Shown: piece by piece, positions 2,621-53,107 of the stretch
Layout of the letters: every line of letters begins with the position of its first letter
Numbering within the stretch: the first letter of the stretch is position 1
Source of the DNA: Malacoraja senta
Lineage: Eukaryota
Length of the DNA: 64,000 nucleotides
Direction: 5' to 3'
Assembly: GCA_038087875.1 (NCBI GenBank)
Contig: CM075988.1
Location: 7,504,001-7,568,000, forward strand
Program-made: the position numbers and the translations under genes
The notes under the pieces: generated by a model
Told to the model about the DNA's origin: nothing
Seen by the model: only the letters and a program-made list of their open reading frames with translations
The model's database searches: none

Positions 2621-2678
2621 GAACGCCCTTTGTGCATACCTGCATCTTTGAAGACCTGCAGTGCAGTCAAATGCTCCA

Positions 2679-5475: not shown

Positions 5476-6830
5476 AAATTCAAGTTCAAGTGAGTTTATT
5501 GTCATGTGTCCCTGATAGGACAATGACATTCTTGCATTCCTTCAGCACAACAGAATATAGTAGGCATTGACTACAAGGCATTCTATAAATATATACACAC
5601 ATGAATCAATATACTGATGAAGTGCAAATAACATTATTGGCTAGTAAAGTTCAGTGTTATGTCCGAGCCAGGTTTAATAGCCTGATGGCTGTGGGGAAGT
5701 AGCTATTCCTGAACCTGGTCGTTGCAGTCTTCAGGCTCCTGTACCTTCTGCCTGAAGGTAGTAGGGAGATGAGTGTGTGGCCAGGATGGTGTGGGTCCTT
5801 GATGATACTGCCAGCCTTTTTGAGACAGCGACTGTGATAGATCCCCTCGATGGAAGGGAGGTCAGAGCCGATGCTGCACTGGGCAGTGTTTACTACTTTT
5901 TGTAGTCTTTTCCTCTCCAGGGCGCTCAAGTTGCCGAACCAAGCCACGATGCAACCGGTCAGCATGCTCTCTACTGTGCACCTGTAGAAGTTAGAGAGAG
6001 TCCTCCTTGACAAACCGACTCTCCGTAATCTTCTCAGGAAGTAGAGGCGCTGATGTGCTTTCTTAATAATGGCATCAGTGTTCTCGGACCAGGAAAGATC
6101 TTCAGAGATGTGCACGCCCAGGAATTTGAAGCTCTTGACCCTTTCAACCATCGACCCGTTGATATAAACGGGACTGTGGGTCCCCATCCTACTCCTTCCA
6201 AAGTCCACAATCAGTTCCTTGGTTTTGCTGGTGTTGAGGGCCAGGTTATTGTGCTGGCACCATATGGACAGTCGCTCGATCTCTCTTCTATACTCTGACT
6301 CATCCCCATCAGTGATACGTCCCACAACAGTGGTGTCGTCAGCGAACTTGATGATGGAGTTCGCACTATGTCCGGCTATGCAGTCATGAGTATAGAGTGA
6401 GTACAGCAGGGGGCTGAGCACGCAGCCTTGAGGTGCTCCCGTGCTGATTGTTATCGAGTCTGACACATTTCCACCAATATGAACAGACTGTGGTCTGTGA
6501 GTGAGGAAGTCGAGGATCCAATTGCAGAGGGATGCGCAGAGACCCAGTTCTGCGAGTTTGGTAACCAGCTTGGAGGGGATGATTGTATTAAATGCCGAGC
6601 TGAAATCGATGAATAACAGCCTGACATATGAGTTTTTGTTGTCCAAGTGGTCCAGAGCGGAGTGGAGGGCCAGCAAGATCGCATCCACCGTTGATCTGTT
6701 GTGGCGGTAAGCGAACTGCAGTGGGTCCAGGTTTTTGTCGAGGTAGGAGTTGATCTGCATCATGATCAACCTCTCAAAGCACTTCATCACCACGGGCGTT
6801 AGTGCCACAGGTCGATGGTCATTGAGGCAC
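5476..6830 (-). mobile_element. Rex1/Babar LINE, 5'-truncated
   Basis: RT ORF plus a 3'UTR ending GACAATAAACTCA(CTTGAA)n on the minus strand. Confidence 0.9.
5657..6808 (-). CDS. Rex1/Babar reverse transcriptase, uninterrupted 383-codon fragment lacking its natural start
   Basis: [56 protein letters not shown]; no internal stops. Confidence 0.9.
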
Positions 6831-14895: not shown

Positions 14896-15362
14896 TAACT
14901 ACCTAATTTTGGACCCTCGGACTATCTTTATTTGGACTTTATCTAGCACTAAATGTTATTTCCTTTATCATGTATCTGTACACTATGGATGGCTCGATTG
15001 TAATTATATACTGTCTTTCTGCTGACTGGTTAGCAGGCAACAAAAGCTTTTCACTGTACCTGTAAATATGACAATAAAATAAACAAAACTAAACTAAACT
15101 GAATCCATCTCTACGGTTTGTGCTTATTAAGGGTTTCAATTAACCTTTGCCATCTCCAAAGCAAATCTTGAGCTCGAGTTGCAAGACTTAAGCCCTACTC
15201 CTGACTTCAGGTTTAAGTTCCCGCATCTGTGCCTTCATTAGCAGAGCATGTCTTCAGTGATACACGACAGCACATTCTGCCCTCTCTCCCCCACCCAGTG
15301 CCTCCAGTTTTAACCAAACGCTGCCAGGCAAGTAAAAACTGAGGTAAAAGTGACAATGTCGA

Positions 15363-15702
15363 GATCTTCAGTATGGACAGGGGGCTGATCTTCAGTATGG
15401 ACAGGGGGCTGATCTTCAGTATGGACAGGGGGCTGATCTTCAGTATGGACAGGGGGCTGATCTTCAGTATGGACAGGGGGCTGATCTTCAGTATGGACAG
15501 GGGGCTGATCTTCAGTATGGACAGGGGGCTGATCTTCAGTATGGACAGGGGGCTGATCTTCAGTATGGACAGGGGGCTGATCTTCAGTATGGACAGGGGG
15601 CTGATCTTCAGTATGGACAGGGGGCTGATCTTCAGTATGGACAGGGGGCTGATCTTCAGTATGGACAGGGGGCTGATCTTCAGTATGGACAGGGGGCTGA
15701 TC
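15363..15702. repeat. Perfect 24-bp minisatellite, 14 copies
   Basis: (GATCTTCAGTATGGACAGGGGGCT)x14 plus GATC; no variant units seen. Confidence 0.98.
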
Positions 15703-17196
15703 GAATTCAGTTTGAAAGAAAAGAATAGCACAAAACTGGAAGGTTCCAAGCAGATATAATGCTGCATTGTACAAACCTTGGGCTTGAAAGTCTAGTTAAG
15801 CTTCAACATTGCTTTAGTCTGAAACAATTTGAATCTTTGGCAGTACATTTATTGATTGATTGAAAGATTGACTGAAAAATACAGCATGGAAACATGGAAA
15901 CATTCACCCCACCGAGACCACACCGATCATTGATCACCCATTCACACCAGTTGTATGTTATCCCAGTTTCTCAACCACTCCTTACACACTAGGGGCAATT
16001 TACAGAGGCCCTAAACCTAGAACCCCCCACGTCTTTGGGATGGGGCACCTGGATGAAAACCCAGTGAGAAGAGCCAAATGCCATTGGTAAAGATTGGGTG
16101 AGCAATAATTTCCACATGTTCCTCTACTGTATGATTTAAAGTCAAATTTATCCCTGGTTTTCCGATCAAGAAAGCTGATTTCAGCAAGGTTTGGATGGAT
16201 AGCGGCATCATTGGGACTATGACTTTACGTATGCAAGTATCCTGGAGTAAAGTAACTTGGCAGGTCAGGCAGCATCTCTGGAGAACGTGGATAGGTGTTG
16301 TTTTGGGTCTGAAGAAGAGTCCCAACTGAAAGCATCATCTATCTGTGTTTTCTGGAGATTCTGGAGATACTACAGCACTTTTTTTTGTAAACCAGCAACT
16401 ATAGTTCCTACTGTCCCCATTTTTTTTGTTTAGTCAGTGGTACAATGTAGGAATGCAGCAATCAATGTGTGTAAAGCAAGCTATCGACACAAGTTAGTAG
16501 CACAATCCAGGTTGATGTTATAATCTGTTTGGAAATGTTTCTGAAACATTTTGCCTTGCATTGGTTTCTCAGGCCAAGGTTGTTCAGTTGCTCTCGGGTT
16601 ACTAATGGACTCAGAATTTATTTATATCATGTGCAAAAATGTAATTGCAGATTGTAAAGTCATATTTGACATTGGTTTATTGTGGGTCATATTTGATCAC
16701 TTAATCTGCTGTGTCTATTGATTGAAAGCAACTCAGTCAATGAGAAGTCTTTCAGTATTTGCCTGCTTCATTTGTGCTATTTATTATAATTTGATTCTGC
16801 GATGATGTACAAGTGTATATGACATCTCCTTGCTCCTTCAGTTTACTGTGTTACAGCTCCTCGTGGTAAATCCTAAACTCATCTATATTTCCAGCATGTA
16901 TTTGGGGGTATATTTGTGTAGGTGCTCTAATTGAAATGTTTGTGACATTTTTAATAAGCTATTATCTCTGGGGAAGAGGTAAATGGTTTATTCCAAACAG
17001 GAACTAGCCTTCTCAGAGTTAAAATTTGCAGTTGACCTGGTCTCAACAACATTATTGGTTTGAGTGTTCCCGATCTTCATTAACCTGTACAGTTCTTCTG
17101 ACCTCTCTCTCTCTCACTCTCTCACTCTCTCTCCCTCCTCCCCTCCCCATAGTGGCTTAACTCCCATGGAAGAAAATCTTTATCCTTTCTACAATG

Positions 17197-27992: not shown

Positions 27993-28459
27993 AGGGCCTG
28001 TCCCACGGGCATGCGACTCCATGCGGCAAGCGCGACCTAACCGCAAGCGCGGGCCAAGCGGGGGCCGCGCGGAGGTCGAGTGATCCCCGTACAGGGCAGG
28101 TCCCACCAGCATGTGGCTGCATGCGGCAAGCGCTACCAAATCGGAAGCGGGGGCCGCGCGGAGGTCGAGTGACGTCAAGACGGTGCGTACGGCGGAGAGG
28201 CGGTGCGCACGGCCGTTGAGGCGGTGCGCACAGCCGTCGATGCGGCTCGATGGCCTCGATGCGGCTGCGGGGCGGCAGGCCGTTGCCGCACGGAATTTTT
28301 GAACAGTGTCAGTTTTTCGGAGCCCCGCGCGATGTCGGGACCAGCTCCGCACAACTCCATATGGCTCCGGCGATCGAAGTGGGACCGGCCCCGCGCGGCC
28401 CCCGCTTGCGGTTAGGTCACGCTTGCCGCATGGAGTCGCATGCCCGTGGGACAGGCCCA
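27993..28459. mobile_element. CpG-rich PIF/Harbinger-type MITE nested in Penelope
   Basis: ~65-bp TIRs starting AGGGCCTGTCCCACGGGCATGCGACTCC. TSD CAA/TAA with one mismatch. Confidence 0.9.
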
Positions 28460-28462
28460 TAA

Positions 28463-28926
28463 CTCCCTTGTCAATTCTTCCCTTCACTCCCGCTCCACCC
28501 CCTCCCCGGGCACTTTCCCTTGCAACCGCAAGAGATGCTACACTTGTCGCTTTACCCCCCCCCCTCGACTCCATTCAAGGACCCAAGCAGTCGTTCCAGG
28601 TGCGACAGAGGTTCACCTGCACCTCCTCCAACCTCATCTATTGCATCCGCTGCTCTAGATGTCAGCTGATCTATATCGGTGAGTCCAAGCGGAGGCTTGG
28701 CGATCGTTTCGCCGAACACCTTCGCTCGGTCCGCAATAACCAACCTGACCTCCCGGTGGCTCAGCACTTCAACTCCCCCTCCCATTCCGTATCCGAACTC
28801 TCTGTCCTGGGCCTCCTCCACGGCCAGAGTGAGCAACACCGGAAATTGGAGGAACAGCACCTCATATTCCGCTTGGGTAGTCTGTATCCTGGTGGCATGA
28901 ACATTGAATTCTCACAATTCCGTTAA
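28463..28926 (+). pseudogene. Penelope GIY-YIG endonuclease domain (frameshift in C-run ~28555-28564)
   Basis: NLIYCIRCSRCQLIYIGESKRRLGDRFAEH...VAQHF...EQHLIFRLGSLYPGGMN. Confidence 0.9.
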
Positions 28927-33400: not shown

Positions 33401-35666
33401 CATATTTGCTGGGTTAACGTTTTGTTTGAGTTGAATAGTGCTGAAAGGGAATTGCAATGCAACCTAGGCCACAGTTTTGGGGAGTGTAATGAGTCATGAA
33501 TCCCATTGTTTCATGGTACAATGTCATCTGCAGGGGTGCCTCCCATGATATCCAGCTTTAAGGCACACACTCTATGGGTGACCGAAACCTTTGGAGAGTA
33601 CTGAATATGTGGACATGGGAGGGGTGGTGGTCAGTTGAAGAGAGTCGAAGAAGAATCAAGGGGATGAAACTGCAAGAAACGAACCTTCAGCCAGATTTTT
33701 TGTATTAATTCAGTGATCATTTGATTTCTCTTTTATTTCTCGCTTTCCTTGACTGCTAAAGTATAAACATATCAAAAATTAATTACGTTTCTTGTTGTAT
33801 TGAAGCTGTATTCCCAATTCTAGTAATAACAAAAGGGGATTTAATTGAAGATTTTGATAATTGAAGATATTTAAATGAAGATATTTAAATGAAGATTTTG
33901 CATTTGATATTACTTGTTAATATTAATATTTTTAATATTTTGGGCACAGTGTGCTGACAGTGAGTTCTTTACTAGCAATGGACTAATGTAACAGCTGTCT
34001 CAAACATTGAGCGCAGTCAGCCGAAAAGTAAGTTTTATATTTCATTACTTTTTAAAGGATAAATATTTCCTCGGGATTTATGAATCAGTAGATTGTCCAG
34101 TAGATTGTCCTGGTGTTACAAGCAAGAGTTTAGATGAAATATAATGTTGGGGCGCATTGGATCAATGGCAGGATTTGAAGGCACAATGTCATGTTTTAAA
34201 GCTATGCTGTTTTGATTTCAAATTTATTTCACAAATTGTGCTCTAGTTTATCAAGAAAATATCTGAAGTTCAAATTGTTACATTAAACGATGCTTGAGGT
34301 GGTTCCGTAAGGGTAGTTTCGACTATTTGTGCACATGTAAGAACTTGTAGTGAAAGAGGTTGACACGGTATGCTTTATTAAATCGGTGGGCTTTTGTGCA
34401 CTGCACCATGGATACAATACCAAACATTTTTTAGTTCAAAAATATATAATTATGGTGAAAAATAGTACTGGTGATAAAAGTGGCTGCAGATAGTGTGAGC
34501 AATGGCATCACGGTGGCATCGATCACCCACAAAATGACTTCTATAGCTGTATGCTGGGACTAGGCTTTTATTCACTTGGCCTAACAAGGAATATAATGAG
34601 AAAAAGCCAATGCGGATAATGAACAGATGCAAATAACTAATGAACAAAGCTGTGTTTAGTTGCAAGAGAGAATGAATGCATGCCACAGTCAGAGCTCCAC
34701 CAGCATCCCCTGCCCCATTCCTCCTTGCAATTTATCCTCTCTCTCTCACGTGCACATTGACTCCCCTTTGATTCTTTTGCTACTTGCTCAGATTAAGAGG
34801 TAATTTACAATAGTCAATTAACCTACCGGCACGTTTTTGGGATGTGTGAATATGTGTGCAGGAGTTACAAAAGCCTGACGTTGTACATCACTAGTTATTC
34901 AGGAACAGATACTTTCCAACAATCATCATGTTCTTTAACCAACCTGGACGACCCTAACTAACTGGACAATGGAACACTATGGACCACTATGGACCATCTC
35001 CTGCACTACCACAGACTAGTTTTTTTCTAATTGTTTTGCACTAAAGTTCCTTTTTTGCACACTTTTTTCTTTTTTTACTATCATGCAGAATTTTGTGTAA
35101 TTTAGCTATAATTTATGTATATTTGTGTATCTGAATCTATGTGCCTGTGCAGGGGTGGAAATCGCTATCAAAACATGGGGGGGGGGCACAATTATTTGGC
35201 GGCTGTATGCACACACATGCACGAAGCTTCGGTCGTGGGCCCGGTGGACGATAACATCGGGAGCTGACCTGGGTGGTGACCGACTCTGAACCCCACCAAC
35301 AGCAGCTTCGTCCACCCCGAATCGTGGGGCTTCATTCGGCCCGTTGGAGGGGCCTTTCATCGCCCGGCGCGGTTTAAAACCAGCCGCGGGATCTTCCATT
35401 GCCCTGCGGGGGCTTCAACATCGGGAGCCTCGATCGCCTTGACTATGCAATTTGACCGGGGGGCGATGGAAAATCCCGCGGCCAATTTTAAGCCGCGCCG
35501 GCTGATGAAAGGCCCCGCGGACGGGCCGTTTGAAGCTCCGCTCTATGATCTTTGCACCACCAGGACGTCTCCCTCCTCCAATCACCACTCTCTATCCTCA
35601 GTCCCACCCCCCTACTTCCGCCTCTGGTCCGACACCTCCCTCTTCCAATCATCACGCTGAATCATC

Positions 35667-36922
35667 ATGTTTTTCGAGGATGTAGCTAGTAGAGTGGATA
35701 AGGGAGAACGAGTGGATATGTTGTATCTGGACTTTCAGAAGGCTTTCGACAAGGTCCCACATAAGAGATTAGTATGCAAACTTAAAGCACACGGTATTGG
35801 GGGTTCAGAATTGACGTGGATAGAGAACTGGCTGGCAGACAGGAAGCAAAGAGTAGGAGTTAACAGGTCCTTTTCAGAATGGCAGGCAGTGACTAGTGGG
35901 GTACCGCAAGGCTCAGTGCTGGGACCCCAGCTATTTACAATATATATTAATGATTTGGACGAGGGAATTGAATGCAACATCTCCAAGTTTGCAGATGACA
36001 CGAAGCTGGGGGGCAGTGTTAGCTGTGAGGAGGGTGCTAGGAGGCTGCAAGATGACTTAGATAGGCTGGGTGAGTGGGCAAATGCATGGCAGATGCAGTA
36101 TAATGTGGATAAATGTGAGGTTATCCACTTTGGTGGCAAAAACAGGAAAGTAGACTATTACCTGAATGGTGGCCGATTAGGAAAAGGGGAGATGCAATGA
36201 GACCTGGGTGTCATGGTACACCAGTCATTGAAAGTAGGCATGCAGGTGCAGCAGGCAGTGGAGAAAGCGAATGGTATGTTACCATTCATAGCAAAAGGAT
36301 TTGAGTATAGGAGCAGGGAGGTTCTACTGCAGTTGTACAGGGTCTTGGTGAGACCACACCTGGAGTATTTCGTACAGTTTTGGTCTCCTAATCTGAGGAA
36401 AGACATTCTTGCCATAGAGGGAGTACAGAGAAGGTTCACCAGACTGATTCCTGGGATGTCAGGACTTTCATATGAAGAAAGACTGGACAGACTCGGCTTG
36501 TACTCGCTAGAATTTAGAAGATTGAGGGGGGATCTTATAGAAACTTACAAAATTCTTAAGGGGTTGGACAGTCCAGATGCAGGAAGATTGTTCCCGATGT
36601 TGGGGAAGTCCAGAACAAGGGGTCACAGTTTAAGGATAAAGGGGAAATCTTTTAGGACTGAGATGAGAAAAACATTTTTTACACAGAGAGTGGTGAATCT
36701 CCGGAATTCTCTGCCACAGAATGTAGTTGCGGCCAGTTCATTGGCTATATTTAAGAGGGAGTTAGATGTGGCCCTTGTGGCTAAAGGGATCAGGGGGTAT
36801 GGAGAGAAAGCAGGTACAGGATACTGAGTTGGATGATCAGCCATGATCATATTGAATGGCGGTGCAGGCTCGAAGGGCCGAATGGCCTACTCCTGCACCT
36901 ATTTTCTATATTTCTATGTTTC
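35667..36922 (+). mobile_element. CR1 (HER1-like) LINE, 5'-truncated, RT region nearly intact
   Basis: YLDFQKAFDKVPH, GVPQGSVLGP, KFADDTKL, RPHLEY. One in-frame TGA at 36198-36200 (probable CpG decay of CGA). (TTTCTATG)-like tail. Confidence 0.95.
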
Positions 36923-38821
36923 TGTGAGGGCAATAGTTAGGGTAAATGCACAGTGCTTTACCCAGAGGGGGGAATCAAGAACCAGAGGACATAGGTTAAG
37001 ATGAGAGGGAAAAGATTTGATGGGAACCCGAGGGGCAACTTTTTCACACTGTGGGTACATGGAATGAGCTGCCAGAGGAGGTAGTTGAGGCAAATACAAT
37101 GACAACATTTAAAAGACAATTGGACAGGTACATGGATAGGAATGGTTTTGAGGGATATGGGCCAAATGTAAGCAAATGGGGCTTAGATGGGGCATCTTGG
37201 TTGGCATGGACGCGTGGGGCCTGTATCCGTGCTCCTTTACTTGATAAGATCACGCCCAGAAGCCTGGCAGTGTGAGACACCCCAGCACTACATGGTATTC
37301 CACTGCACCACCCAATAGTTTCATTATTGTTTTAATGGATATAACAATTAGTGATATTTATACCACTGTTAATAGTGATAAATATGTAGCTGCATCATTC
37401 CATTAAGAATAGGAGAAGAAAGCATGGACAGGCAACATCTCGGGAGAGAAGGAATGGGTGATATTTTGGGTCGCGACCCTTCTTCAGACAGGTTGTGGGA
37501 ATTGGCTGATCAGTCTCCAGATATATTTCCTAATCGCTCGTAAATTGGGTTGCATTCCTGATGCATCATGTCAAAGGAGCACGACACTGGTACGGACTTA
37601 GCCGAGCCACTTTCCACCAGAACCTCTGTACTACGGCTGCAGTATATTAACGCACTTAATATGATGCAAGCTGCCCTGGAGACCGGCTTCCTTTGTGTTG
37701 ATCTCTCTGATCTTTCCACGCAGAGTCCAGAATACATAATGAATCCTGACTTCCAGATGCCATGCAGTTGTTTTCTCTTGGTGCTCTGGTGTTTATAGAC
37801 TTAGATCCCACAATAAAAATGAGGCCGCTTCTGTCATTTTTTTTCTTTTTGCCTCCTGATTCCTTCTCTGCACTTGGGATAATACAGATCCAATTAAATT
37901 GGTAATTCAATGTTTGGTAATTTAAGACTTGTTATTTTTGCCTATCATCACCCTAATTGATAATAAAAAATAGCACAGCATCCCACCCATATCTCTGGAA
38001 ATTTGGATTGACTGTTGTACTGTTGTAGTGTATTTAGAATGAGGAAAATAGTCCCCATCTTGTATATATTTTAAAAATGTGGAATCCACTCATAACTCTT
38101 GTAACAGTTTTCTCAGTGAAATTCCTCTTTTGAAATTGGTTCTGATTTCCACGGAGTTTACCATAATCTACAACAAAATGTGCGGCAAATCATGTCGTTA
38201 TTTTGCGCAATACTTTGATGCAAATGTTTATGGTCTAAGAGTCTACACCTATTTGAACACTGTCATGCTAGTCTTAAAGAAAAATACAGTGCTGGAGTAA
38301 CTGAGCAGGTCAGGCAGCATCCCTGGAGAACTTGGAAAGGTGACACTTTGTGTCAGGACCCTTATGAAGAATTATATACAATTCTGAAGAAGGGTCCCGA
38401 CCTGAAACATCATCCATCTATGTCCTCCAGAGATGCTGCCTGGCCCGCTGAGTTTCTTCATCTTTATAAACCAGCATCTGTTCCTTGTTTCGACATCAAA
38501 CTAACCTATTGTTTTCTTCTTGGTGTGTTTGCCTCCTTGCATACATTTATTTTATTTGCCTCGGCAACTGGAGTTCCACATTCCTGCCATTGAAGAAATG
38601 TTTCTCTTGAACTTTCTACTGATTCCATCTTTATGAGCCCTAGTCTTTGTGCACTCTATACAATTGATATTCATACATCGGATCTAATTGAATGTCAGCT
38701 GCTTTGCAACAGCTACTATGGACCAAGTCAATCTCCTTGTATAGTTTAACGTCTTAATTAGTCAGATCCTTGATTTGCACAATGCTGTAATCCTCGTTTA
38801 TTCCATGTAATTATGAATTTA

Positions 38822-39479: not shown

Positions 39480-40910
39480 TGGGCCAGAATTAGTTTGGTG
39501 CATCCAATAGAGTTTTTTTGAAACAGTATGTGGATATTCTAACTCAAGGGACCATTCTGGACCTTGTATAGGGAAACAAACCTGGCTGGGTGACTACCAT
39601 TTCAATGGGAGATAACTTCAATGGGAATAGTGACCAAAAGTTTTAAGATAGTTATGAATAAGGATAGATCTGGTCCTTAGGGGGAAGTACTAAACTGGGG
39701 AGGCAACAATGATAAACAGGAGGTTTGACCTGAAGCTGTTAAATGGATAAGTTCGCATCTCACATGTGGGTGTTATTTAAATAGCAGCTAATCAGAGTTC
39801 AGGACCAGTGTGTTCTAGTTAGGGGGAGGGTCAAGATGGCAAAGTAGGAGAACCTTGGATGATGAGAGAGGTTATGAGTATTGGTCAAAATGAAGAGGGG
39901 AGCATATGTGTGCTTTAGGAAGATGAACAGACAAGGCATTTGAGAAATATAAAGAAAGCAGGAAAGAACAAACAGACAATGAGGAAGGCCAGAAAGGCCT
40001 ATGAAATGTCATTGGCATCAGATGAAAGAAAATCCCAAATTATGCGTTAATAACAAGGGAGGGGGGGGGGGGGGTAACTAGGGTAGGGTAGGACTACACA
40101 AGGGTAAAGGGGGGAATTAATGCTTGGAGTGAGAGGATGTAATTGAGTTTCTAAATGAGTACTTTGCATCTGTATTCACCAAGGAGCAGGACATTGAGGG
40201 TAGTGAAATCAGGGGGAGAATGCTAAAATATAGGGTCAGGCATCATCTATAGAGGGAATAGGTAGGCAATCTTTTGGGTCAGGAATTTTTTTTCGTCTGA
40301 AAAAGGGTTTTGACCTGAAGCGTCGCCTATCCACTCCCTCAACAGATGCTGTTTGACCTGCTGAGTTACTCCAGCACCTTGTGTTTTGGATGAAAATGTA
40401 GAAGGATTTGTTAGTCAGTTTGCAGACAACACAAAAATTGGTGAAGTTGCTAATAGTGAAGAAGGCTCGTCAAAGGATACAGAAGGATCAATTAGTTACA
40501 GATATGGGTGGAGAGATGGCAGATGGAGTATAATCTGGGAATGTGTGAGGTGTTGCATTTGGGTGGTCAATTGTAAGGGGAGGTACAGTTAATGACAGAA
40601 CCACCAATGGCATTAATGTACAGAGGGATCTTGGGTTCCAAATCCATAGCTCATTGAAAGTAGACTGGTAAAGTGGACTGGTGCATGGTATGCTTGCCTT
40701 CATTAGTGGGGGCATTGTGTATAAGAGTCAGGAAGTCATGTTACAGATTTATAAAGCTGTTGATTGAGCTACATTTGGAGTGTTTGTGTGCATTTCTGGT
40801 TGTCCTAGTGCAGGATGGATGTGGGTGCTTTGGAGAGCGTACCAAATAATTTTTACAGATTGGACACAAATTAGATGAAATTAGATATAAAGAGAGGTTG
40901 GATAAACTAA
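39480..40910 (+). mobile_element. Old degraded CR1 LINE with a Penelope-unit insert (~40296-40388)
   Basis: ILDLV.GN, FLNEYFASVFTKE and SQFADNTKIG relics. Confidence 0.75.
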
Positions 40911-41184
40911 GTACAAACCACTGCAGATGTTGGTTGCTACACAAAAGGGCACAAAGTGCAGGAGTAACTCAGCAGTTCAGGCAGTATCCCTGGTAGGTGA
41001 CGTTTCGGGTCATGACCCTTCTTCAGACTGATCTTGATGCAAGGTCAACACACATCTTTACCAGACTACTTGGCAGGAGTGACTCTTTCTGAGTTCATCA
41101 GTGTACATTGCTGCTCTGTATATCCTCTCCTCCTGTTCCCTTTTGGCTCCCTCTGTACTTTTCCACTTCTCCTTGCTCCTCGAA

Positions 41185-41405
41185 AATAGACACAAAATGC
41201 TGGAGTAACACAGCGGGACAGGCAGCATCTCTGGACAGAAGGAATGGGTGACATTTCGGTTCGAGACCCTTCTTCAGACTGGAGAAGAGTCTCGACTCAA
41301 AACGTCACCCTTTCCTTCTCTCCAGAGATGCTGCCTGTCCCGCTGAGTTACTCCAGCATTTTGTGTCTATTTTTGTATTAATCCAGCATCTGCAGTTCTT
41401 TCCTC
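41185..41405. mobile_element. Inverted (fold-back) pair of Penelope hammerhead units
   Basis: ~95-bp arms centred at CTTCAG-A-CTGGAG (~41272-41284). Imperfect flanking duplication CCACT(T)CTCCTT(G/T)CTCCTC. Confidence 0.85.
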
Positions 41406-41508
41406 CACTCTCCTTTCTCCTCATTCTCTTTCTCTTCGTTCGCCAAAAGTGCTGAAGAGAATTGCAGTGCCTAATGGCTGCGATCAATAAACTCTATGCC
41501 AATGAAGG

Positions 41509-42280
41509 TGTTCATCCTGGCTAAATTGGAGCAGCTAGGACTTCAGAATCGGGTTACGTTTCAGGGTTGTGGGGAGATTTGGTCAAATTGGAATTACTCT
41601 CTGCAGAGCTGGGGCAAGCTGCAGAGAGGTGCCAGAGTGCCTGGAGCTTAGATTCAATTTGCAAGCAAAGAATGGGAAGATCTGCAAACCCTGTCAATCT
41701 GGTGCAAAATGCATAGAATGGATTGGATGGCTGCTAACCAGACATACACCTTGTAAATAGTTGTAAATAATGTTGCACAGTCTGACTTTGCCAAGTGTTG
41801 ATTGGATGAGGTGTTGAGCCTTGTCTGGGTTTTCTGTAAATCAGGGTAAATGTTTCCAAGTTGACTTCCTCTCGAAGTCCATTTTGAATACAATGTATTG
41901 AACTGTTGTATCATTGTGTTAGGGGAATGCCTGTTATGAATGGGGTTAATCGATATCTGTAATTGAGTTATTGAGAGACCACCCCCATGTGATTCGTCCC
42001 CTCGAGGTCCCGGGACATATAAAAGTCCACGATCACGAGGCTCAGCGTTGATCTTCTGGAAGAGCACTCAGGACTGCGTGAACTTCTGGACTGCCTCTGT
42101 CTGAGCGAGGCCTAGAGGGCTTGAACAGGCAGACGTGAGGATCGAACCCGCGGTGGGATAGGTACAGTGTTTGATCAGTGACGCGCTTTTGGTAAAATAA
42201 AATTTAGTTGTTTCAAGTGCTTGATTCAGTGTTTTTACTGAAACTAGACTGGGGGGGAACTTAGAAACGAGCAATTATCA
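41509..42280 (+). repeat. 5' LTR (772 bp)
   Basis: TGTTCATCC...AATTATCA. TATAAAA at 42018-42024, AATAAA at 42196-42201. Confidence 0.95.
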
Positions 42281-42281
42281 T

Positions 42282-42299
42282 TGGGGGCTCATCCGGGAT
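42282..42299 (+). promoter_or_regulatory. Primer-binding site, tRNA-Pro
   Basis: TGGGGGCTCATCCGGGAT is a 17/18 match to the MLV-type PBS-Pro TGGGGGCTCGTCCGGGAT, 1 nt after the LTR. Confidence 0.93.
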
Positions 42300-44132
42300 A
42301 TCAAAGGTCCCCCAAACACAAGTTTGCGATCAAGGGTGTTGAGCTGTTTCGATCACGTGCAGAAATCGGGCTAATGGTACGGTTTTCACATTGATTTTCG
42401 GCACTTCGTGAGTCGGAGTGGATCGATCATTCGTGGGCTTGGGAAAGGATCTAATCGAGATCATTAGAACAGAGTCTAGCAAGCACGGAGGAATGGTTAG
42501 CACACCTTTGGGTTGGAGGCTCTTAAAACAAGGCTGGGGTTAGAGGCCCTTTCCTGGGTTAGGGGCCCAAAACTGGTCATAGTTGGGCAGACTGCAGTTG
42601 CCTTTAATGAGAGCTAAACGTGCTTCATTGGGCAAGGAGTAGCCCAGGGTTAGACTTGGTATCCGAATTGGTGAGGTATTAAAAGACAGGTCTCGCCTTT
42701 GATCGGATCGTTGCCGGGAGTGCAAATTGAAAAGGTGCGCTTCGAAAAACAGCATCGATAATTCACAGCGCAAAGCGGCTAGGCGCTGGATCCTCGGTAC
42801 TTAGCAGAAGGGTGTATCTGTGTGTAGGTGTCTGAGCCTCTCCCTGAAGTGACGGACGAAGCGCCTCGAAAAGGTACCGAACTTGGACGAACAGAGTATA
42901 GATTGGCCGGAATACTCCAGTTCGTTCAAGAATTTAATCGGGCCATTTTAGCTAATTCGAGAGCCCGCGTAGTAAGAGAGATACGCACTAAAAATTAGGA
43001 GATCGAGTTCAAGTCTGAGTCTATATTTGCAGCTAAATTTTCAAATACTGGATTTCATATTGAAGTTCTGCGTAAGGTGGGATTCGAATTCCTGTATATA
43101 GAACTTCGAAGTTGGTGCATGTCCGTCATCGATTCCGAATAGCGGCTGATCAACAGTGAATAGTAACCCTCTGGTCGATTGTTGACTCGTACCTGATAGC
43201 GAAGAGTACCTGAGAGACGGGAGCCTCCTTACTTGATGAAAAGTAATCCGAATAGCGAAGTGTACCCCTAATTCTGTCGAACTTAGAGAGGAGGGATAGA
43301 GGTCCCCCTCTAGAAGTCCAGTATTAGCAGAGGGATAGTAACATTCGGGGGGGAAAATAATCATTTAGGGAATAGTACCCCTCAGCAAAGAGTAAACTAG
43401 GAAGGGGAAAATCTTCGGTATCAGAGGGAGTGGTTCACTGCGTGATAACAGCGTGACGCGGCGTCGAGATCGAGTGTCCGTGAATTGTGCGTTAGTGCTT
43501 TAAATCATTTTGTAAATTGTAAAAAATAGCTTTCCGTATTGTTATAGGATCCGGATTTTGTAAATATTCTCTGTATATAAATAAATTTAGAATAATTAAA
43601 AGTTAAGATTTAGATCGTGAATTAAAACTTGAAGAGAGAGTGTGTTTAAGTTAGATATTCGTATTTGTTTAATATCGTTTCGTAAGAATCTGAATCGGGG
43701 TGGTTTGATCAGGGGTTGTACTCCTTCGATCGCTGCGCTGGGGGAGGAGACATCCAATTGATTGATTGCGCCACGAGGAAGATTTCTTAGAGTGCGTGAT
43801 TTATAATAGACGAATGTTTGTGGTTTATTTAGGGGTTTGGTTGTGCCTGATAGTGATAGGTAGCGTATTATCCTGTTTGTGGACTGTGTTACTTGCGTGT
43901 CTGAAAATCATTTTAATATGTTATGATTGAGAACGTTATAAGGTTGAAAGAGCGTGGACTTGTGGGAGATAGGAGAAGAATTTGAATGAGAGAACAGGAC
44001 TGGTGGAGCGAAGGAGTAGCGAGTTGCGAGGTTGCGATCGCGTTGAACCATTAGCCATTGTCTAGGAGCGAGCTTGGTAAATTTAGGGATAAAAGGAAGG
44101 ATTTAAAAATTCAGTGTCAGGTGTTCGGAAGC

Positions 44133-46582
44133 ATGGGGAATAATGTAGATAGAGATGTAACAGAAGAAGTGAAAAGCCCATTACAACTAATGTGTAATGA
44201 GTTTCCTCATAAGGCAGAGAAATTAAGAAATTTATCACGAGCATTAAATAAGAAATTAGGGATTAAGCTATGGCCGCCAGGGGGGAACAGGGACAGTAAA
44301 AGGGATAAAATACATAGAACTAATCAATTGGCAGCATAGTAATAACGAGGGTGCAAAAGAATTAATAGGGTTATGGAGAAAATATTTTGAGGATCGGAAG
44401 ACGAATAAGGAGGTCAAGAGAATGGCTAGTTGGGAAAAAGCGATCGCTAAACTTGGATTAGAACTAAAAGAAGGTGAAGTAGATCGACCACCAGGTAGTA
44501 GTAGGGACAGGAATGGAGATAAAGGGAAACACTCAGAACAAGGGAAAGGTGGATCTCCTGGAAGAAAAGTAGTTCCTGTAAAATTAAAGATGAAGAATCC
44601 GAAGGTTAGTGCTGACTTCGGGGGGGGGAAGAGGATGAGTATTTAGAAGAGTGGACAAATGTTAACGTCAGTGGACGTTCACAGCTCCCACCATGTTCCT
44701 CTTGCGTTTCCCAGGCTTCATTAGCACCGTGTATGACTTGTGTCCATAATAAATATTTTAGGTCTGCAGAATCTATAACAACTCCGGCAGATTCTACATC
44801 TGAACAGGTTTTACCAACAGCAGATACTGAGGTAACAGATCCTTCGATCTTATCCACGCCATCACTGATAGATCGTCCAGTGGCTTATGGCACCCGGAAG
44901 AAAAGGTTAGCTCCCGTGTTTAAAGGTATGTTAGATATAGTGCAACCACCAGAGTATTTCTGTGAGCCACAACCTAGGCAGATCACTCGAGTGGAAAGGA
45001 ATGATTTATTTGGGCAGTATCGGGAATTCCCTAATGAACCGGAAGATTTATCGGAGGGTGAGACAGTAATTCTAGATACCGAAATAGACTTTGACGTAAC
45101 TGAAAGTTTATAAATTGAACAGGTATCCCATAGGCAGTTACCAGTAAGGGAAGGAATAGGAATAACAGATTCGGCCAGCGCAGTGAGATTGAATAATCCC
45201 CGCGTTACAGATGCCCATATGCCATGGAAGCCCCATGAAATAATGGCAGTACTAAACAGAATCCCTGATAGGAAGAAGTCCCCTGCTGCTTTCATAGGGT
45301 ACTTGTGGACCACAATGCGTGTATACCATGCAGATTCACGGGATTTGTGGGAGACCATACAACAGATAATTTCTCCAGCTGAGAATACCAAATTTCTAGT
45401 AGCCCTAGGACACCCGATTTATGAAACATTGGCGGGCGAGGTAATGGACGACAGTGCAAGAGAAGAGGTTGTTTTAACGGCCCTTGCAAAAACGTTTCAG
45501 AAACCAGGCGATTTAAGTCGAGTCCTGGAAATAAAACCAGAGAAGGGGGAAGGAGCAGACGAATTTCTAGACCGCTTTTCAAAATTATATATGGATCAAT
45601 CAGGTGATTTAGACTATCAGAATGGAGTAAGTTCCCCTCAATATTATGCGGTCTTGTTGAATTATCTACCCACTAAAATAGCGGATTTAATTAAAATAAA
45701 TAAAAGGAACTGGTCTGAGAACCGAGCCAGTCAAATAGCCAGAACTGTGAGATATTATTGGAAGGAAGGTAGGAACCAGGAAAATTATTCTGTAACTAGG
45801 AGAGAAAGTGAACGCACAGCGAAGGAGGAATTACCAAAATCTAACTCTGAACCATGGATTCCCAGAGTGCCAACAAATTACGGATTGGGAGATATTAGAG
45901 TCCCAGATTACTCTCACCGTTATACTCCCAATCTCAAGCACATTTCAATGGAACCCAGGGGTAGAATAAGACCAACAATGCTACCTAACCAATGCTATAC
46001 TTGCGGAGGGATGGGACATTGGAGTAGGGCCTGTCCAACGAAGGAACGGATGAAAGAGAGGGGTCAAAGAAGGGGTTTCCAGGATTAAGACGAACTTAGA
46101 GATCCTAGAGAATATAGAGACATCCGACATCCAAGGAATTATGGGAGGTCCTTTAATTCAAGAGACTACTGGGACCCAAGAAACCAGAGAGAGACAGATG
46201 GCCCGAATGTCAGGAACTGAGAAGTCACACACCGTTTACTCAAGCTACCCCATTTTCTCAGTCCTGACTCACCAACCCGTCCTGGAATTGTGGGCGTGGA
46301 GACATGACCCCTACTCTGGATCCCTCTCAAGTAATTTACCAGAATGAGTGGATTGGATATACTATTGTAATAAAAACTGGAAATATTATGGAAGAAAATT
46401 ATAAACCCTCTTCTGATTACCCCAGAAAACCCCTTAGAGCAAAGAAGATTGTAAATCAAGGAGCTTGTTTCAACTGCACCCAATCAGGTCACTGGAGCAA
46501 GGAGTGTCCAGCGAGAAGGCAGAACATAGCTGGATTGAAGAAAAATCAAGAGGCAATAAAGAAAGTAAGAAAAGGAACATAG
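44133..46582 (+). pseudogene. gag: Retroviral Gag (MA - PPxY region - CA - NC), few lesions
   Basis: Kozak AGCATGG with MG start. MA-like WPPGGT. PPEY at 44946-44957. CA start QLPVRE. MHR-like LSRVLEIKPEKGEGADEFLDRF. CCHC knuckles CYTCGGMGHWSRAC and CFNCTQSGHWSKEC. Confidence 0.88.
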
Positions 46583-47858
46583 TAGTGAGTGTGAAAAGAA
46601 ATAGCAACTGAGGAATGGAAATGGCACTACGGAGAGAAGAAACAAACTTACCGTGCAGGAGGAATGGGAGTGGGGGAAAGAAGATATTGAATTAATGTAT
46701 TGCTGAGTTTTGTGCCTGCAGGACAGTGTGTCAACAAGAGACTGTCTGGGGAGTGAGGTAAAAGAATGCACAGACCCCTAAGAACAGGAAGAAGACAGCG
46801 AAAGGTAATGTAGCTCCCCAGAAAAAGGTGACCAGCAGGAAGAATTGATACTGTCCTGCCCCTTTAAGACATTTGGGAAGGCCAGCAGGCAGAGCGACAT
46901 GCTCCTCAGTATCTCCACTCCCTAGTAACCTATACCATCAGTAGAAAGGAGGAAGAAAAGGACCTACCCTAGTGCCCAACTTTAATATCACCTAGCTACT
47001 GAAGGTAGAAGAGGAAGGGGAACAAAGGACACTTTAATAATCTCCAAAAGAAATAACTGACAACTTATAAAGACTGTTAGAAAAACAGAATTTCTCTGTG
47101 ATTCGGGGCAAAATACTCACTTTGCGCCAAAATTTAATTATTAGTAAATTAATTCAAAGAGGGCTTATGGGATACAGTCTCAGATTTGTTAGAGAATTGA
47201 CTGTTAATTTAGCATTCTTCTTTTGTCTCACCCATAAGAGGATAGTCAAAGATAGGACTGGACTATTTAGTTACTACCAAGGAAGGGACAGACCCTAGCG
47301 GATATCAGGAATTAAGACATACCCTGGAAACGTAAGGTGGTAGTATAAAATGATGAGGTAGACCGAAAATTTATGTTCCCCTCGGAAGATCAATACTAAC
47401 CATCTAGAAGTTACTTAGAGATAAGAACCCCTAGACAAAGAACGAAGCCAATAGAATAAAAGCGAGAACCCATAGACAGAGAACGAAGCCAACTTAGTAA
47501 AAAGCCAACATAGTGGAGAATTAGCATAGTAACGAGTTACCATAGTGATGCATACATAAATAAGAGGAGATACTGGAGGAAAGACTTGGTTAACTGTAGG
47601 GTGAACCTTGAATTGTATTGGGAATAGCAGATCTGAAGTGTATTCACCCGATGGATTTGAATTGTTTAACCCATGATGGTAAAGCGGCTTAGATCATCAA
47701 GGTGGAAAGAAATTGTCCCTGGATTTGGCATTTTTGATTGGGCTTCAGATAAAATTAATAGTAAAGGAAATTGATTGTTTAAATTTGAACAGCTGGGAAT
47801 TCCACAGGAATTGGAAGGGAATTGTTTTATCGGCTACAATGCTGTGGAATGAGAAGAG

Positions 47859-48135
47859 ACCGAGATGAGGAAAAACTTTTTCACACAGAGAGTGGTGAAT
47901 CTCTGGAACTCTCTGCCACAGAAGGTAGTTGAGGCCAGTTCATTGACTATATTTAAGAGGGAGTTAGATGTGGCCCTTGTGGCTAAAGGGATCAGGGGGT
48001 ATGGAGAGAAGGCAGGTACGGGATACTGAGTTGGATGATCAGCCATGATCATATTGAATGGCGGTGCAGGCTCGAAGGACCGAATGGCCTACTCCTGCAC
48101 CTATTTTCTATGTATCTATGTATCTATGTATCTAT
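47859..48135 (+). mobile_element. Young CR1 3' end inserted in the provirus, 12-bp TSD
   Basis: GAATGAGAAGAG at 47847-47858 and 48136-48147. (TATCTATG)n tail. Closely matches 36660-36915. Confidence 0.92.
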
Positions 48136-48399
48136 GAATGAGAAGAGGAAATGGGCATTGAAATTCAAAAAAGTAAATTGAAGGCTGAAACTGAATTTGG
48201 TTAAATTGGAACATTTATCATGGTTTGCTTCAAATTAAAGTCACGCCTGTAGGGGAATTTGGACCGAACCCAGCTGAAATTTATATGATTACCCGTCATC
48301 AGATATACATAGTATAACACCGTGTGAGTATGAAGAAGGCTAATTAGTGTCGATCCTAGAATAATAAAGAATATATTAGGGAACAGAATAGGAATAGGG

Positions 48400-48752
48400 G
48401 TACTTCAGATATGAAGATTGTATGTACATAATAGTTGTATGTATATATATGTCTGTAGGTATTATGGGAAATTGCCTAGGGTAGTATTATTATTAGTAAT
48501 GAATTGATTTTTAAATATGATAGAAGTGTTGGGGAAAAGGGGTGAGATTTAATAAGTTATTCTTCTTCTCACTCCTTTTCGAGCTTGTACAGACACAGAG
48601 TTGGACATTGGAACTTTGATTTTGTTCTTCTCATTGCTTTGTAAATATTGATTGTAATGTCCAATTGTTTGATAATTTCGATTTTGTTAATATTAATGTC
48701 TTTAATGTCTTTACTTGTTCGGAATAAATAAATAGATAAATAAATAAATAAA
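48400..48752 (+). mobile_element. Crack/L2-like 3'UTR inserted in the provirus
   Basis: AAGGGGTGAGATTTAATAAG..CTTCT..CTCCTTTTCG and TGTTCGGAATAAA(TAAA)n match the element at 248-992. The 5' boundary is uncertain. Confidence 0.65.
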
Positions 48753-49134
48753 TAGTGAACAGTAATAGAGCAATAGATAATAGAATTGGGATGGGTTCAG
48801 GTGAAATAGGAATAGCGAATGTGTTAGAAAGCATGAGTGAATGATGGTCACTTGCTTTGTCCCAAGCTTCTTAGGATTTTCTAGGGTTTAGGTTCGACTG
48901 TGAAAGGTGATGGAAGACTGGGCAGGGACACGGATGGAGGGAATTCGCGCCCACGAAAACTCGGGAGGTGAAGACTCCTCAGACAGAACTTGTGAAGTTA
49001 TGCCCATGAAAACTCTGGACGTTTGACAAGATTCTGAGAAGAAACATCATCATCTTCTGTTACTGATAGATAGGAAATGTAAAGCACACTTATGTATATC
49101 TGGTTAGCTGAGCCACTTTGGTTATCATTATGAT

Positions 49135-49146
49135 AAAAGGAAGGAA
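49135..49146 (+). promoter_or_regulatory. Polypurine tract
   Basis: AAAAGGAAGGAA immediately before the TG of the 3' LTR. Confidence 0.9.
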
Positions 49147-49916
49147 TGTTAATCCTGGCTAAATTGGAGCAGCTAGGACTTCAAAATGGGGTTAGGTTTC
49201 AGGGTTGCTGGGAGATTTGGTCAAATTGGAATTACTCTCTGCAGAGCTGGGACAAGTTGCGAAGAGGTGTCAGAGTGTCTGGAGCTTAGATACAATTTGC
49301 AAGGAAAGAATGGGAAGATCTGCAAGCCCTGTCAATCTGGTGTAAAATGCATAGAATGGATTGGATGGCTGCAAACCAGACACACCTTGTAAATAGTTGT
49401 AAATAATGTTGCAGAGTCTGACTTTGCCAAGTGTTGCTTGGATGAGGTGGTGAGCCTTTTCTGGGTTTTCTGTAAATCAGGGTAAATGTTTCCAAGTTGA
49501 CTTCCTCTCGCGGTCCATTTTGAGTACAATGTATTGAACTTTTGTATCTTTGGGTTAGGGGACTGCCTGTTATGTATGAGGTTCATCGATATCTGTAATT
49601 GGGTTATTGAGAGACCACCCCCATGTGGTTCAGCCCCTCGAGGTCCCGGGACATATAAAAGTCCGCGATCACGAGGCGCAATGTCGATCTTCTAGAAGAG
49701 CGCTCGGGACTGCGTGAACTTCTGGACTGCCTCTGTCTGAGCGAGACCTAGAGGGCTTGAACAGGCAGACGCGAGGATCGAACCCGCGGTGGGATAGGTA
49801 CAGTGTGTGATCTGTGACCGGCTTTTGGTAAAATAAAATTCAGTTGTTTCAAGTGCTTGATTCAGTGTTTTTACTGAAACTAGACTGGGGGGAAGCTTAG
49901 AAATGAGCAATTATCA
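49147..49916 (+). repeat. 3' LTR (770 bp)
   Basis: Direct repeat of 41509-42280. TATAAAA at 49654-49660, AATAAA at 49832-49837. Confidence 0.95.
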
Positions 49917-50835
49917 AAGGAATGTTCATTGCCATTTATTTTGGCGCTATTTTTTGTACACTTGCTGGAGAAGGATCAACCTGCAGTGTGTGCAGCTCTG
50001 AAGCTAATTTATTTGAGAAGACGTTTCATATTTTGAAAACGCATTCACTTGTAGTCAGACTTCACATGTAATGCCTGAATGAGACTTGCTAAACAGCAAG
50101 GAAAGCTCTTGGGTATTCGTGACCTTAATCAGCTGCTGGTTCAACTTTTTAATATCTTTTGAATGAAGTCATCAAATCCCGTTTTCATTAAAGTTAGAGG
50201 CTTCTGAATGAATATTCCATCTAACTACTCCTGCTTAAATGATCACCAGCCCTGCTAATATTAGGAGAAATAGATCCATCTTTTAGTTATTGCTATTTTT
50301 TATTGCAAGGTAGGGTTGATTGCAAAGGTACAATTTTAAAATTGTACGCAGGTTTAATATTTTCCTCTAATTACCAGTATTTAGATAATGTAGCGTTCAC
50401 AGTTTTGCACAGCTAGTTTAAAAATGAGAACTCCCTGTGAAATGAGAACATTCCCACGGGGCATTTTCTTTGCAGGACTGTCGCGACCTCAAAATAGGAG
50501 TCAATTAATCAGGATAGAAATAAGAAGTATTGTTCCAAACTCAAGAGGGTGGAATCATTGGAATTTTCCTAGTGAGGTTTTGAGCCCCAATCATTAAGTT
50601 TATTCAAGTCAAGGAATAAGTGTAGTCATTAAAGTTAGAGATAGCAGAATAAGCTAGAATATGTCCTGAATTACACTGTCGTTGTCTACCCCTGTTTAGC
50701 AAAGAATGGATAACTCAGTAACACATGGAAAATCTTGTTGTTCAATACATGCAAAAATCTCCTCTCACTCAATGAGGCTGTTAGGATGGAATAAGGATAT
50801 TAATTCCTTGAATAATTTTATTTTTTGTGAGATAT

Positions 50836-51492: not shown

Positions 51493-51690
51493 TTGTGTCG
51501 GAAGGAACTGCAAATGCTGGTTTAAACTGAAGATAGACACAAAATGCTGGAGTAACTCAGCGGGAGAGGCAGCTTCTCTGGATCGCTTCAGACCTGAAGA
51601 AGGGTCTTGACCCAAAATGTCACCCATTCCTTCTATCCAGTGATGCTGCCTGTCCCGCTGTGTTACTCCAGCATTTTGTGTCTATCTGTC
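51493..51690. mobile_element. Inverted pair of Penelope hammerhead units
   Basis: Centre CTTCAG-AC-CTGAAG at ~51586-51599. Confidence 0.8.
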
Positions 51691-53107
51691 TATTTGGGAT
51701 AACCTCTTGTTTGTTTTCTTTGATCTCCTGGTGAGAGTTAAGGGCAACCTAGGCCTTGCATGATATTCCTCATCAGGAATAACTTGCCAGCCAGTGCTCA
51801 GCAACCTGGGAGTGATGAGTTATTGGAGAACAGATTACCTTGAAACTAGCGCACAGCCATAATCATCGCCTTTAGTTCTGCAGATGCAAACGTAATTAAG
51901 TGCCTTCAAACCTCCTGAGAAAATGATTAGTTGCCAGGTTAAGTAATGCTTGGAGTTTAGTTTAGTTGAGAGGTAGAACATGGAATAATCGAGTCCACAC
52001 CCATCCTCAATCACCCATTCACATCAGTTCCTTGTAATCCATTTTCCTCTCCACTCCTTACACATTAGGAGGAATTCACAAAGGTCTATTAACCTACAAA
52101 CCCACAAGACTTTGGGTTGTGGGAGGAAATCCCACGAGGTCACAGGGAGAAAGCGCACATTCCATACAGGCAGCACGCAAGGTCAGGATCAAACCCGGGT
52201 CTTTGGTGCTGTGAGGTAGCAGCTTTAACAGCTATGCCACTATGCTGCCCTGACTTGGCATTGATTGGAATGGGTAAAATGGAGCATCAATTCAACATTT
52301 TAATATCGTTTTCTGGAACCACAACATTTTGACACATAGAAACAATCGTCAAATTGATCAGATGCAGAGGACACAATGTCTGTTGAAGCACTCCACACAA
52401 CTGTGAAGCACACAATGTCTGCTGGCTTGGAAGCACTGAGATTGATGGGTGTGGGAGTTGAGGAAGTGTGTGTTTAATCTCTGCAGATCGGGTCCCGATT
52501 TTGTTTAGTTTTCCTCGGCCTCCCATCTGTGGCCAGTCCGTGAGTGTGTCTCTCGTTCTGACCCTGAAGGGTTTGCGGAGAGAAAGCCAGATGTTGTTGA
52601 GCGATGCAGATTACTGTCGGCTGCTAACTCGGCAGCTATTGGGTTTCTGGCCACCTGTTGTATGTCTTCAGCTGCTGGCTTAAGGCAGGATTGGGTGAGT
52701 CGGAACAAGGGACAAAGATCTTGCTTAAAAATGAAAACATTGAGTCTTGCTCCATTACATGTCCTTTTCTAAGTCGTTAATTAGATGGAGCCAGGGAATT
52801 CAACCATGTTTTCCCATGTGCCATGTGACACTGCAGGGATAAGCTTATGATCATTTTATTTGGAAAAGCTTTTAACTAACTTTCAGAAGTTCAGACCTGA
52901 ATTTTGGGCTCAATTTGGTGAAACCCAGTATGCCCAGTTTTAGTTTGGAGCCACATGGAATTAATATTTGTTTTGGAATAGGGGGTTGCATCTTGATTTA
53001 TTATTCCCATGCAGAATCATTTCTCTTTACTTTAGACTTTAGAGATACAGTGTGGAAACAGGCCCTTCGGCCCACAGAGTCCACGCTGGTCAGCGATTAC
53101 CCCATAC

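Follow-up and report, generated by a model that had tools for sequence, protein, structure and literature searches.

A gag-carrying, pol-less endogenous retrovirus of class I affinity in the skate Malacoraja senta, probably one copy of a non-autonomous family

We analysed a 64,000-nt stretch of the genome of the skate Malacoraja senta (GenBank assembly GCA_038087875.1, contig CM075988.1, positions 7,504,001 to 7,568,000 of the forward strand; hereafter the window), in which positions 41509–49916 hold an endogenous retrovirus (ERV) with a gag gene and neither pol nor env. All of its features lie on the forward strand. The provirus is bounded by two long terminal repeats (LTRs) that run from TG to CA, a 5′ LTR of 772 nt (41509–42280; TATAAA at 42018, AATAAA at 42196) and a 3′ LTR of 770 nt (49147–49916; TATAAA at 49654, AATAAA at 49832), and the pair is flanked by the target-site duplication AAGG, with identical letters at 41505–41508 and 49917–49920. 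Next to the 5′ LTR lies a primer-binding site (PBS) of the proline-tRNA type (42282–42299), 17 of whose 18 bases equal the PBS-Pro probe of murine leukaemia virus (MLV) printed in PMC4587795, and a polypurine tract (49136–49146) forms a purine run directly before position 49147. The initial annotation had described these cis elements as complete, and every one of them was found; paired TG..CA LTRs, a short duplication, a PBS and a polypurine tract together mark an integrated LTR retroelement. The LTRs agree in 717 of 770 ungapped columns (93.1%), with 29 transitions and 24 transversions and a Kimura two-parameter distance of 0.072. At the two host rates used in PMC4422223, 2.2e-9 and 2.2e-10 per site per year, this distance translates into 16 to 164 million years, which tells us no more than that the copy is old. 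A palindromic short repeat resembling a miniature inverted-repeat transposable element (41183–41373; 95-nt arms, 91% complementary) is separated from the 5′ LTR by 135 nt on its upstream side and has relatives within the window at 38276–38460, 40272–40397 and 51529–51694.

Between the PBS and gag lies a long non-coding leader (42300–44132) whose longest stop-free run is 56 codons. Measured over 42281–44132 (1.85 kb), it contains 4.9 CpG per 100 nt compared with 1.8 in the flanks, with an observed-to-expected ratio of 1.08 against 0.39–0.42, so that the CpG-rich leader of about 1.8 kb reported at the outset is confirmed. A packaging signal is likely to be located in this long leader. The leader piece that is deep in public sequencing runs (see below) showed no stable fold beyond shuffled sequences (z −1.19), no tRNA gene was found within the window, and an Rfam scan returned a single match at chance level. 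The splice donor candidate GTGAGT proposed at 42408 exists as a motif, but it is a bare one, and donor patterns match at 10 places in the element.

The gag gene (44133–46267) is broken into five pieces. With three apparent frameshifts (one near 44285, another in a run of G near 44625 and a third between about 46157 and 46218) and two stops (45111–45113 and 46086–46088), the gag of this copy is dead, and its description as nearly intact does not hold. The stop-free runs left in the area of gag and the frame behind it measure 324, 165, 128 and 104 codons, compared with at most 75 in adjoining regions, which fits a gag that was open at insertion. The matrix-like part, with an MG start (44133–44615), was assigned by position and motifs only and gave no significant relative. 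Its WPxxGT motif, cited earlier as a matrix trait, is present, but only across a frameshift; WPxxG is also seen in distant Gags, and we take it to be a matrix motif. There follow a proline-rich spacer with PPEY (about 44943–44957), the capsid (about 45189–45770) and a CCHC knuckle (45993–46034). The 324-codon frame (45114–46088) matched the Pfam family zf-CCHC (E 1.3e-6); no Gag_p30 match was obtained in Pfam for the window protein itself, and its relatives gave weak Gag_p30 matches, one of them above the Pfam cut-off. A short C-terminal Pro-Phe (PF) motif occurs near the stop in seven of the nine relatives printed and is absent from the other two. Since this motif, common to shark Gags, also stands directly before the TGA at 46265–46267, gag probably terminates at 46267.

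To characterize the capsid we modelled the unbroken stretch 45114–45794 together with 18 relatives, which gave a mean predicted local distance difference test score (pLDDT) of 79. The best match of the model in the PDB was the MLV capsid (E 4.5e-5, TM score about 0.44). Its best retroviral matches in BFVD were the Gags of a Rhinella marina (toad) ERV, walleye dermal sarcoma virus (WDSV) and walleye epidermal hyperplasia virus 2 (WEHV2), with E values of 1e-6 to 3e-5. The element thus carries a Gag with an MLV p30-like capsid fold and a CCHC nucleocapsid, as class I ERVs do. Over all BFVD entries the capsid matched V5NX06 best (E 2.7e-8, 17% identity), the protein HP37 or 'ICP4c' of Chelonid alphaherpesvirus 5. 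In that virus HP37, HP36 (a retroviral-type aspartic protease) and HP35 (like a retroviral Env transmembrane protein) are consecutive on one strand (PMC3462797), and the three read like a captured gag-pro-env cassette; passages of PMC3462797 name HP37 ICP4-like, not Gag.

By sequence, the closest protein is the uncharacterized product of Amblyraja radiata LOC116973492, 79% identical over the capsid (in a search with two matches among 1809 candidates). This unnamed gene model, which is short or broken and was compared with the window through its protein sequence, almost certainly represents a further decayed copy of the same family. Gag relatives in Heptranchias, Scyliorhinus and Pristiophorus are 39–48% identical, and skate and shark relatives overall span 35–80%. 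In a capsid tree built from 18 rows, the window sequence pairs with the Amblyraja protein at 100/99 amid shark Gags, consistent with the chondrichthyan host initially proposed; the skate branch is long. In Pristiophorus japonicus, gene model P0007 joins a related Gag to an RNase H of about 90 residues that is nearest to MLV and xenotropic MLV-related virus (XMRV; E 9e-10, PDB). The model runs from Gag straight into the class I RNase H, with nucleocapsid, protease and reverse transcriptase skipped. This fusion links the Gag clade to class I Pol, with the reservation that a gene model may be spliced or deleted.

Directly behind the probable gag stop, and in frame with gag, lies a second open reading frame (ORF), ORF2 (46268–46582; 104 codons from stop to stop), with an ATG at 46304 and a CCHC knuckle at 46466–46507 (Pfam E 2.2e-6) followed by a basic tail. 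In class I retroviruses pro-pol lies behind the gag stop; here no pro-pol is found in frame at that place, and the knuckle ORF stands there instead. This position of ORF2 is the single unusual feature of the element. ORF2 was considered as a possible duplicate of the 3′ end of gag: the whole of it aligns to the end of the Heptranchias Gag (E 2.6e-10), the knuckles being alike. Without its knuckle it resembles shark Gag spacers marginally, the score being reached in 23–34 of 500 shuffles for three named shark Gags, in 3 of 500 for one unnamed Gag and in 181–452 of 500 for four others. No likeness at the DNA level was seen between ORF2 and the provirus's own gag, and no read-through structure was detected behind the gag stop (z 0.17). 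The start of ORF2 was also considered as a protease remnant, TIVIKTG being compared with the DTG motif, and rejected: no Pfam protease matched at E ≤ 5, and the Atlas returned knuckle clusters only. The class I affinity claimed for the element is supported by the modelled capsid, whose nearest folds are those of MLV, the toad ERV, WDSV and WEHV2, and by the shark Gag joined to an MLV-type RNase H. We nevertheless file the element as 'class I-derived' rather than as a complete class I retrovirus, because the knuckle ORF takes the place of pro-pol behind the gag stop, as would be expected for a non-autonomous derivative.

The initial annotation had seen no protease, reverse transcriptase, RNase H or integrase, and profile and structure-database searches agree. 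In 12 frames (six each of 46221–49146 and of the leader, with X at stops) no Pfam family of pro, pol or env appeared at E ≤ 5, the only matches being the knuckle and one unrelated family at chance level. A PDB search with the three sense frames of 46221–49146 (one of them from 46583) gave no retroviral match at E ≤ 10; the same search recovers the RNase H of about 90 residues in the shark relative at E 9e-10, and that Pristiophorus piece itself found no match in the provirus at E ≤ 1. The triplets DSG at 47100 and DTG at 47569 were discarded as protease candidates since they lie in stop-rich frames that offer no protease context. Between its two LTRs the provirus therefore has gag and lacks pol and env, the gag-only layout of the zebrafish Bik elements discussed below.

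The region from 46583 to 49135 bears no likeness to Pol or Env and appears to be non-coding. In 46583–47846 the longest stop-free run is 75 of 421 codons, a length that 24.5% of shuffles reach, and for a 421-codon frame decayed as fast as gag the probability of being broken to this degree is 0.0003 (0.003–0.01 at up to twice that rate). Because its stop-free run is like that of shuffles and improbable under gag-like decay, this segment was probably non-coding already before the copy inserted. Farther downstream a retroposon tail of a long interspersed nuclear element (LINE), which we presume to be CR1-like, is nested at 47859–48135; it ends in (TCTATGTA)n, is flanked by a 12-bp target duplication (47847–47858 and 48136–48147) and is 93.7% identical to a LINE end at 36656–36926 of the window. 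A probable second tail ending in (AATA)n lies at about 48545–48760, with approximate bounds; no target duplication was found for it, the best being 7 bp in an unlikely place. Of the two nested LINE tails reported earlier, one is thus established by its duplication and the other is indicated by depth alone. From the end of ORF2 to the 3′ LTR there remain 2564 nt, or 2275 nt after removal of the proven insert and roughly 2.05 kb after removal of both tails. The space is too short for pro-pol, as had been argued, although the figure of about 1.9 kb behind gag has to be replaced by these lengths; MLV reverse transcriptase alone has about 650–680 residues (PDB entries).

We next turned to public sequencing runs for other copies. 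Eighteen of the 23 runs listed, from seven organisms, contain 26–37% of the element's sampled words. Four runs were mapped on 41380–49146 at 82% likeness in 30 bins, and all 30 bins were covered in all four. No RNA run was listed among those that contain the element; run X19, at first guessed to be RNA, was judged on its mapping to be probably DNA. Summed contig depth differs between bases by a factor of more than ten and is used here as a ratio only, not as copy number. For the comparison of gag with what follows, seven gag bins and five post-gag bins of the 30 were used, bins in contact with either retroposon tail, the polypurine tract or the gag ends being omitted. The median summed depth of 46301–47595 was 0.84–1.01 times that of gag, whereas the LTR reached 14–38 times gag. 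Contigs that skip the LINE tail (joint 47856>48159) were present in run X5 (four) and run X6 (three), sister copies thus lacking this insert, and at position 48698, within the probable second tail, summed depth was 18505 in X1, 56 in X5 and 0 in X6. In the four runs, two leader parts (42934–43451, and about 42500–42600) had several times the depth of gag and probably belong in common to other LTR-mates that are gag-less or have a more distant gag. Searches of viral and metagenome contigs for related loci by protein gave 10 and 100 pattern matches, respectively, none of them confirmed, and a 26-nt LTR pattern gave none in either.

Four of the 32 pieces listed (out of 292,842) bridge the gag stop into ORF2. 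They come from runs of two organisms, are 85–94% identical to the window, extend at least 40 letters to each side of the stop and show no protease between; in other copies, too, ORF2 thus occupies the place where protease would be expected to start. These diverged bridges, together with a 3′ region as deep as gag, make it highly improbable that an ordinary gag-pro-pol-env provirus inserted here and was then reduced by a one-off deletion at this locus. Single defective copies are indeed the commonest state of ERVs, and in zebrafish incomplete ones make up 96.9% of the ERV-like elements (PMC8672886). However, no ends of pol or env are left in the element, its 3′ region looks long non-coding and is present in other copies, and the junction between gag and ORF2 recurs in the bridging pieces from other organisms.

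We consider it likely, with a probability of roughly 0.7, that the element belongs to a skate family of non-autonomous class I (epsilon-like) ERVs with many copies, a family that would supply its own Gag and borrow its enzymes from a helper. The LTR would drive a full-length RNA that is translated into Gag and packaged, via the long leader, into mixed particles together with the Gag-Pol of the helper, which would provide protease, reverse transcriptase and integrase. Reverse transcription would be primed by tRNA-Pro and the purine tract. Products of an integrase-type insertion, namely paired LTRs and a 4-bp duplication, are observed. Having no env, the family would have spread inside germ-line cells or in the helper's envelope. 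Since its insertion the present copy has decayed, as seen in an LTR distance of 0.072 and five breaks in gag, and has gained one, probably two, retroposon tails. The copy itself is dead, and nothing points to its use by the host.

Several observations weigh against a family of this kind. No full-length sister copy was seen: no piece among the 32 listed, out of 292,842, spans the element, the joints being swamped by the LINE tail, and none bridges the ORF2 stop. Two of them, no. 6 of X1 and no. 32 of X6, stop matching at that stop (46574 and 46586) and leave letters unmatched, 44 or 102 and 8 or 239, respectively, depending on how the minus strand is counted; some copies may therefore continue differently after ORF2, possibly into the pro-pol of a helper. 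No helper was found, long Gag-Pol or Pol relatives being absent from 7998 and from 41 candidates in what are weak tests, and a functional family Gag that is used in spread remains putative. A spike in depth was also observed inside 46560–46700, just behind ORF2 (about 4–9 times gag at 46630 in X1, X5 and X6); near the points where the pieces break off, it may mark a subfamily branch point.

The pieces that depart at the ORF2 stop, with none listed crossing it, could also mean that the family is mainly autonomous, a long epsilon-like provirus with pro-pol, and perhaps env, behind ORF2, of which the window locus is a minority, internally deleted form. ORF2 stops at a TAG, the codon that is read through in gamma and epsilon viruses; if gag and the 3′ region were both present in the parent, their depths would likewise be expected to be equal, and the sawshark gene model connects the Gag clade with class I Pol. 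We nonetheless regard such a family as unlikely. The Gag end motif of the clade precedes ORF2 rather than following it, a clean deletion would have to take every pro, pol and env codon, and depth does not drop in the bin that crosses the ORF2 stop. The parent would, moreover, need about 2 kb of 3′ non-coding sequence in addition to the 1.85-kb leader, an estimated length of about 13 kb.

A further question is whether the Gag of a pol-less family still matters for its spread. Elements such as VL30 and ETn move on cis signals alone, and the skate gag could likewise be a passenger that was already decaying while all proteins came from a helper. The window and Amblyraja copies are both broken or short, the skate branch on the capsid tree is long, and some stretches of the leader exceed gag severalfold in depth, so that the cis signals are probably shared by relatives with no gag or a divergent one. 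Against this, the stop-free runs of 324 to 104 codons exceed anything in neighbouring regions, the capsid folds confidently at the mean pLDDT given above, and in each of the four runs mapped, sister copies differ from the provirus at position 45111, where the latter has a stop. A gag carried as a mere passenger therefore appears quite improbable to us, and we retain the reading in which the family supplies its own Gag.

The position of ORF2 invites a more specific proposal for such a family, which we put forward as a speculation and consider unlikely. A skate-wide class I ERV parasite may have replaced pro-pol by a second nucleocapsid module, so that read-through of the gag stop would yield, beside Gag, a longer two-knuckle Gag instead of Gag-Pol. 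This product could favour packaging of the parasite's own RNA in particles shared with the helper, and the parasite would have become widespread over millions of years, unseen by Pol-based ERV screens.

Elements with comparable architecture are known from other vertebrates. Mammalian MaLR elements have a gag-only internal ORF, depend on ERV-L, belong to class III and produce a 5-bp duplication. The skate element resembles them as a pol-less LTR element with a gag-like ORF that would spread in trans, but differs in its class I-like capsid, 4-bp duplication and PBS-Pro; MaLR appears in a Repbase table (PMC5753468). Zebrafish Bik-1 and Bik-2/crestin (BHIKHARI) have gag without pol or env and are thought to need a partner for reverse transcriptase and integrase (PMC12067270). 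They share with the skate element the arrangement LTR-gag-LTR in a fish, and are described there as having many copies and many more solo LTRs. The Bik elements are young and related to lokiretroviruses, and their foamy-like Gag, with a coiled coil, a capsid and a glycine-rich end, is intact and developmentally required. In the window element, by contrast, CCHC knuckles accompany an MLV/epsilon-like capsid, the LTRs diverge by 7%, gag is broken, and the additional knuckle ORF is present. Its orthoretroviral capsid and CCHC knuckles place it outside the BHIKHARI/lokiretrovirus group, and no foamy Gag occurs among the fold matches listed. Chicken ENS-1 (ERNI), a non-autonomous variant of ENS-3/Soprano (PMC12067270), is similar in being a non-autonomous ERV variant that keeps a Gag-type protein, but in the description given there it is sister to ERV-L, on the class III side, and its partner is known.

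Among ERVs of cartilaginous fish, the elephant-shark CmiERVs were collected by a Pol-based screen that also required a downstream Env (PMC4422223), and two of their three lineages lie near epsilonretroviruses (PMC4422223, PMC4977317). The skate element is like lineages II and III in its host class; Gag relatives from sharks link it to an RNase H of MLV type, and its nearest retroviral capsid folds in BFVD are those of the epsilon-like WDSV, WEHV2 and Rhinella marina ERV. It differs from the CmiERVs, which are defined through Pol together with Env, in lacking both, a separation made by their published description only. Since the element has neither gene, Pol-based screens would miss families of this sort. 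Zebrafish commonly harbour incomplete elements and elements of the ERV1-N type (PMC8672886, PMC9341512). We found no account of the skate family in the literature searched, although subscription journals, Repbase Reports and supplements could hold one. With respect to the possibly undescribed non-autonomous lineage first suggested, the lack of any Pol remnant and a layout common to other copies at the gag end speak for it, whereas the kind is better known than had been stated, as Bik-1, Bik-2 and ENS-1 illustrate. Gag-only, non-autonomous ERVs are a known kind in zebrafish and chicken, and the skate element is probably a new, class I-like example rather than a new kind.

If this reading is true, a class I case from cartilaginous fish joins the few vertebrate ERV families that keep gag and lose pol, and the gag-only lifestyle would have arisen independently in ERVs of class I, in those of class III and in lokiretroviruses. 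The zebrafish and chicken families supply Gag proteins that are used in development (PMC12067270), and intact skate copies, if there are any, would be of interest in view of that use. The deep leader pieces provide a handle toward the helper.

Other retroelement remains occur among the long ORFs of the window, at 2623–4909, 28303–28926 and 35661–36827 on the forward strand and at 5657–6829 on the reverse strand. From their motifs we take these remains to include L1/Tx1-like and CR1/L2-like reverse transcriptase pieces, a 390-codon reverse transcriptase frame and a GIY-YIG-like (Penelope-type) piece. In addition, a tandem array with a 30-nt unit at about 15310–15790 gives rise to repetitive open frames.

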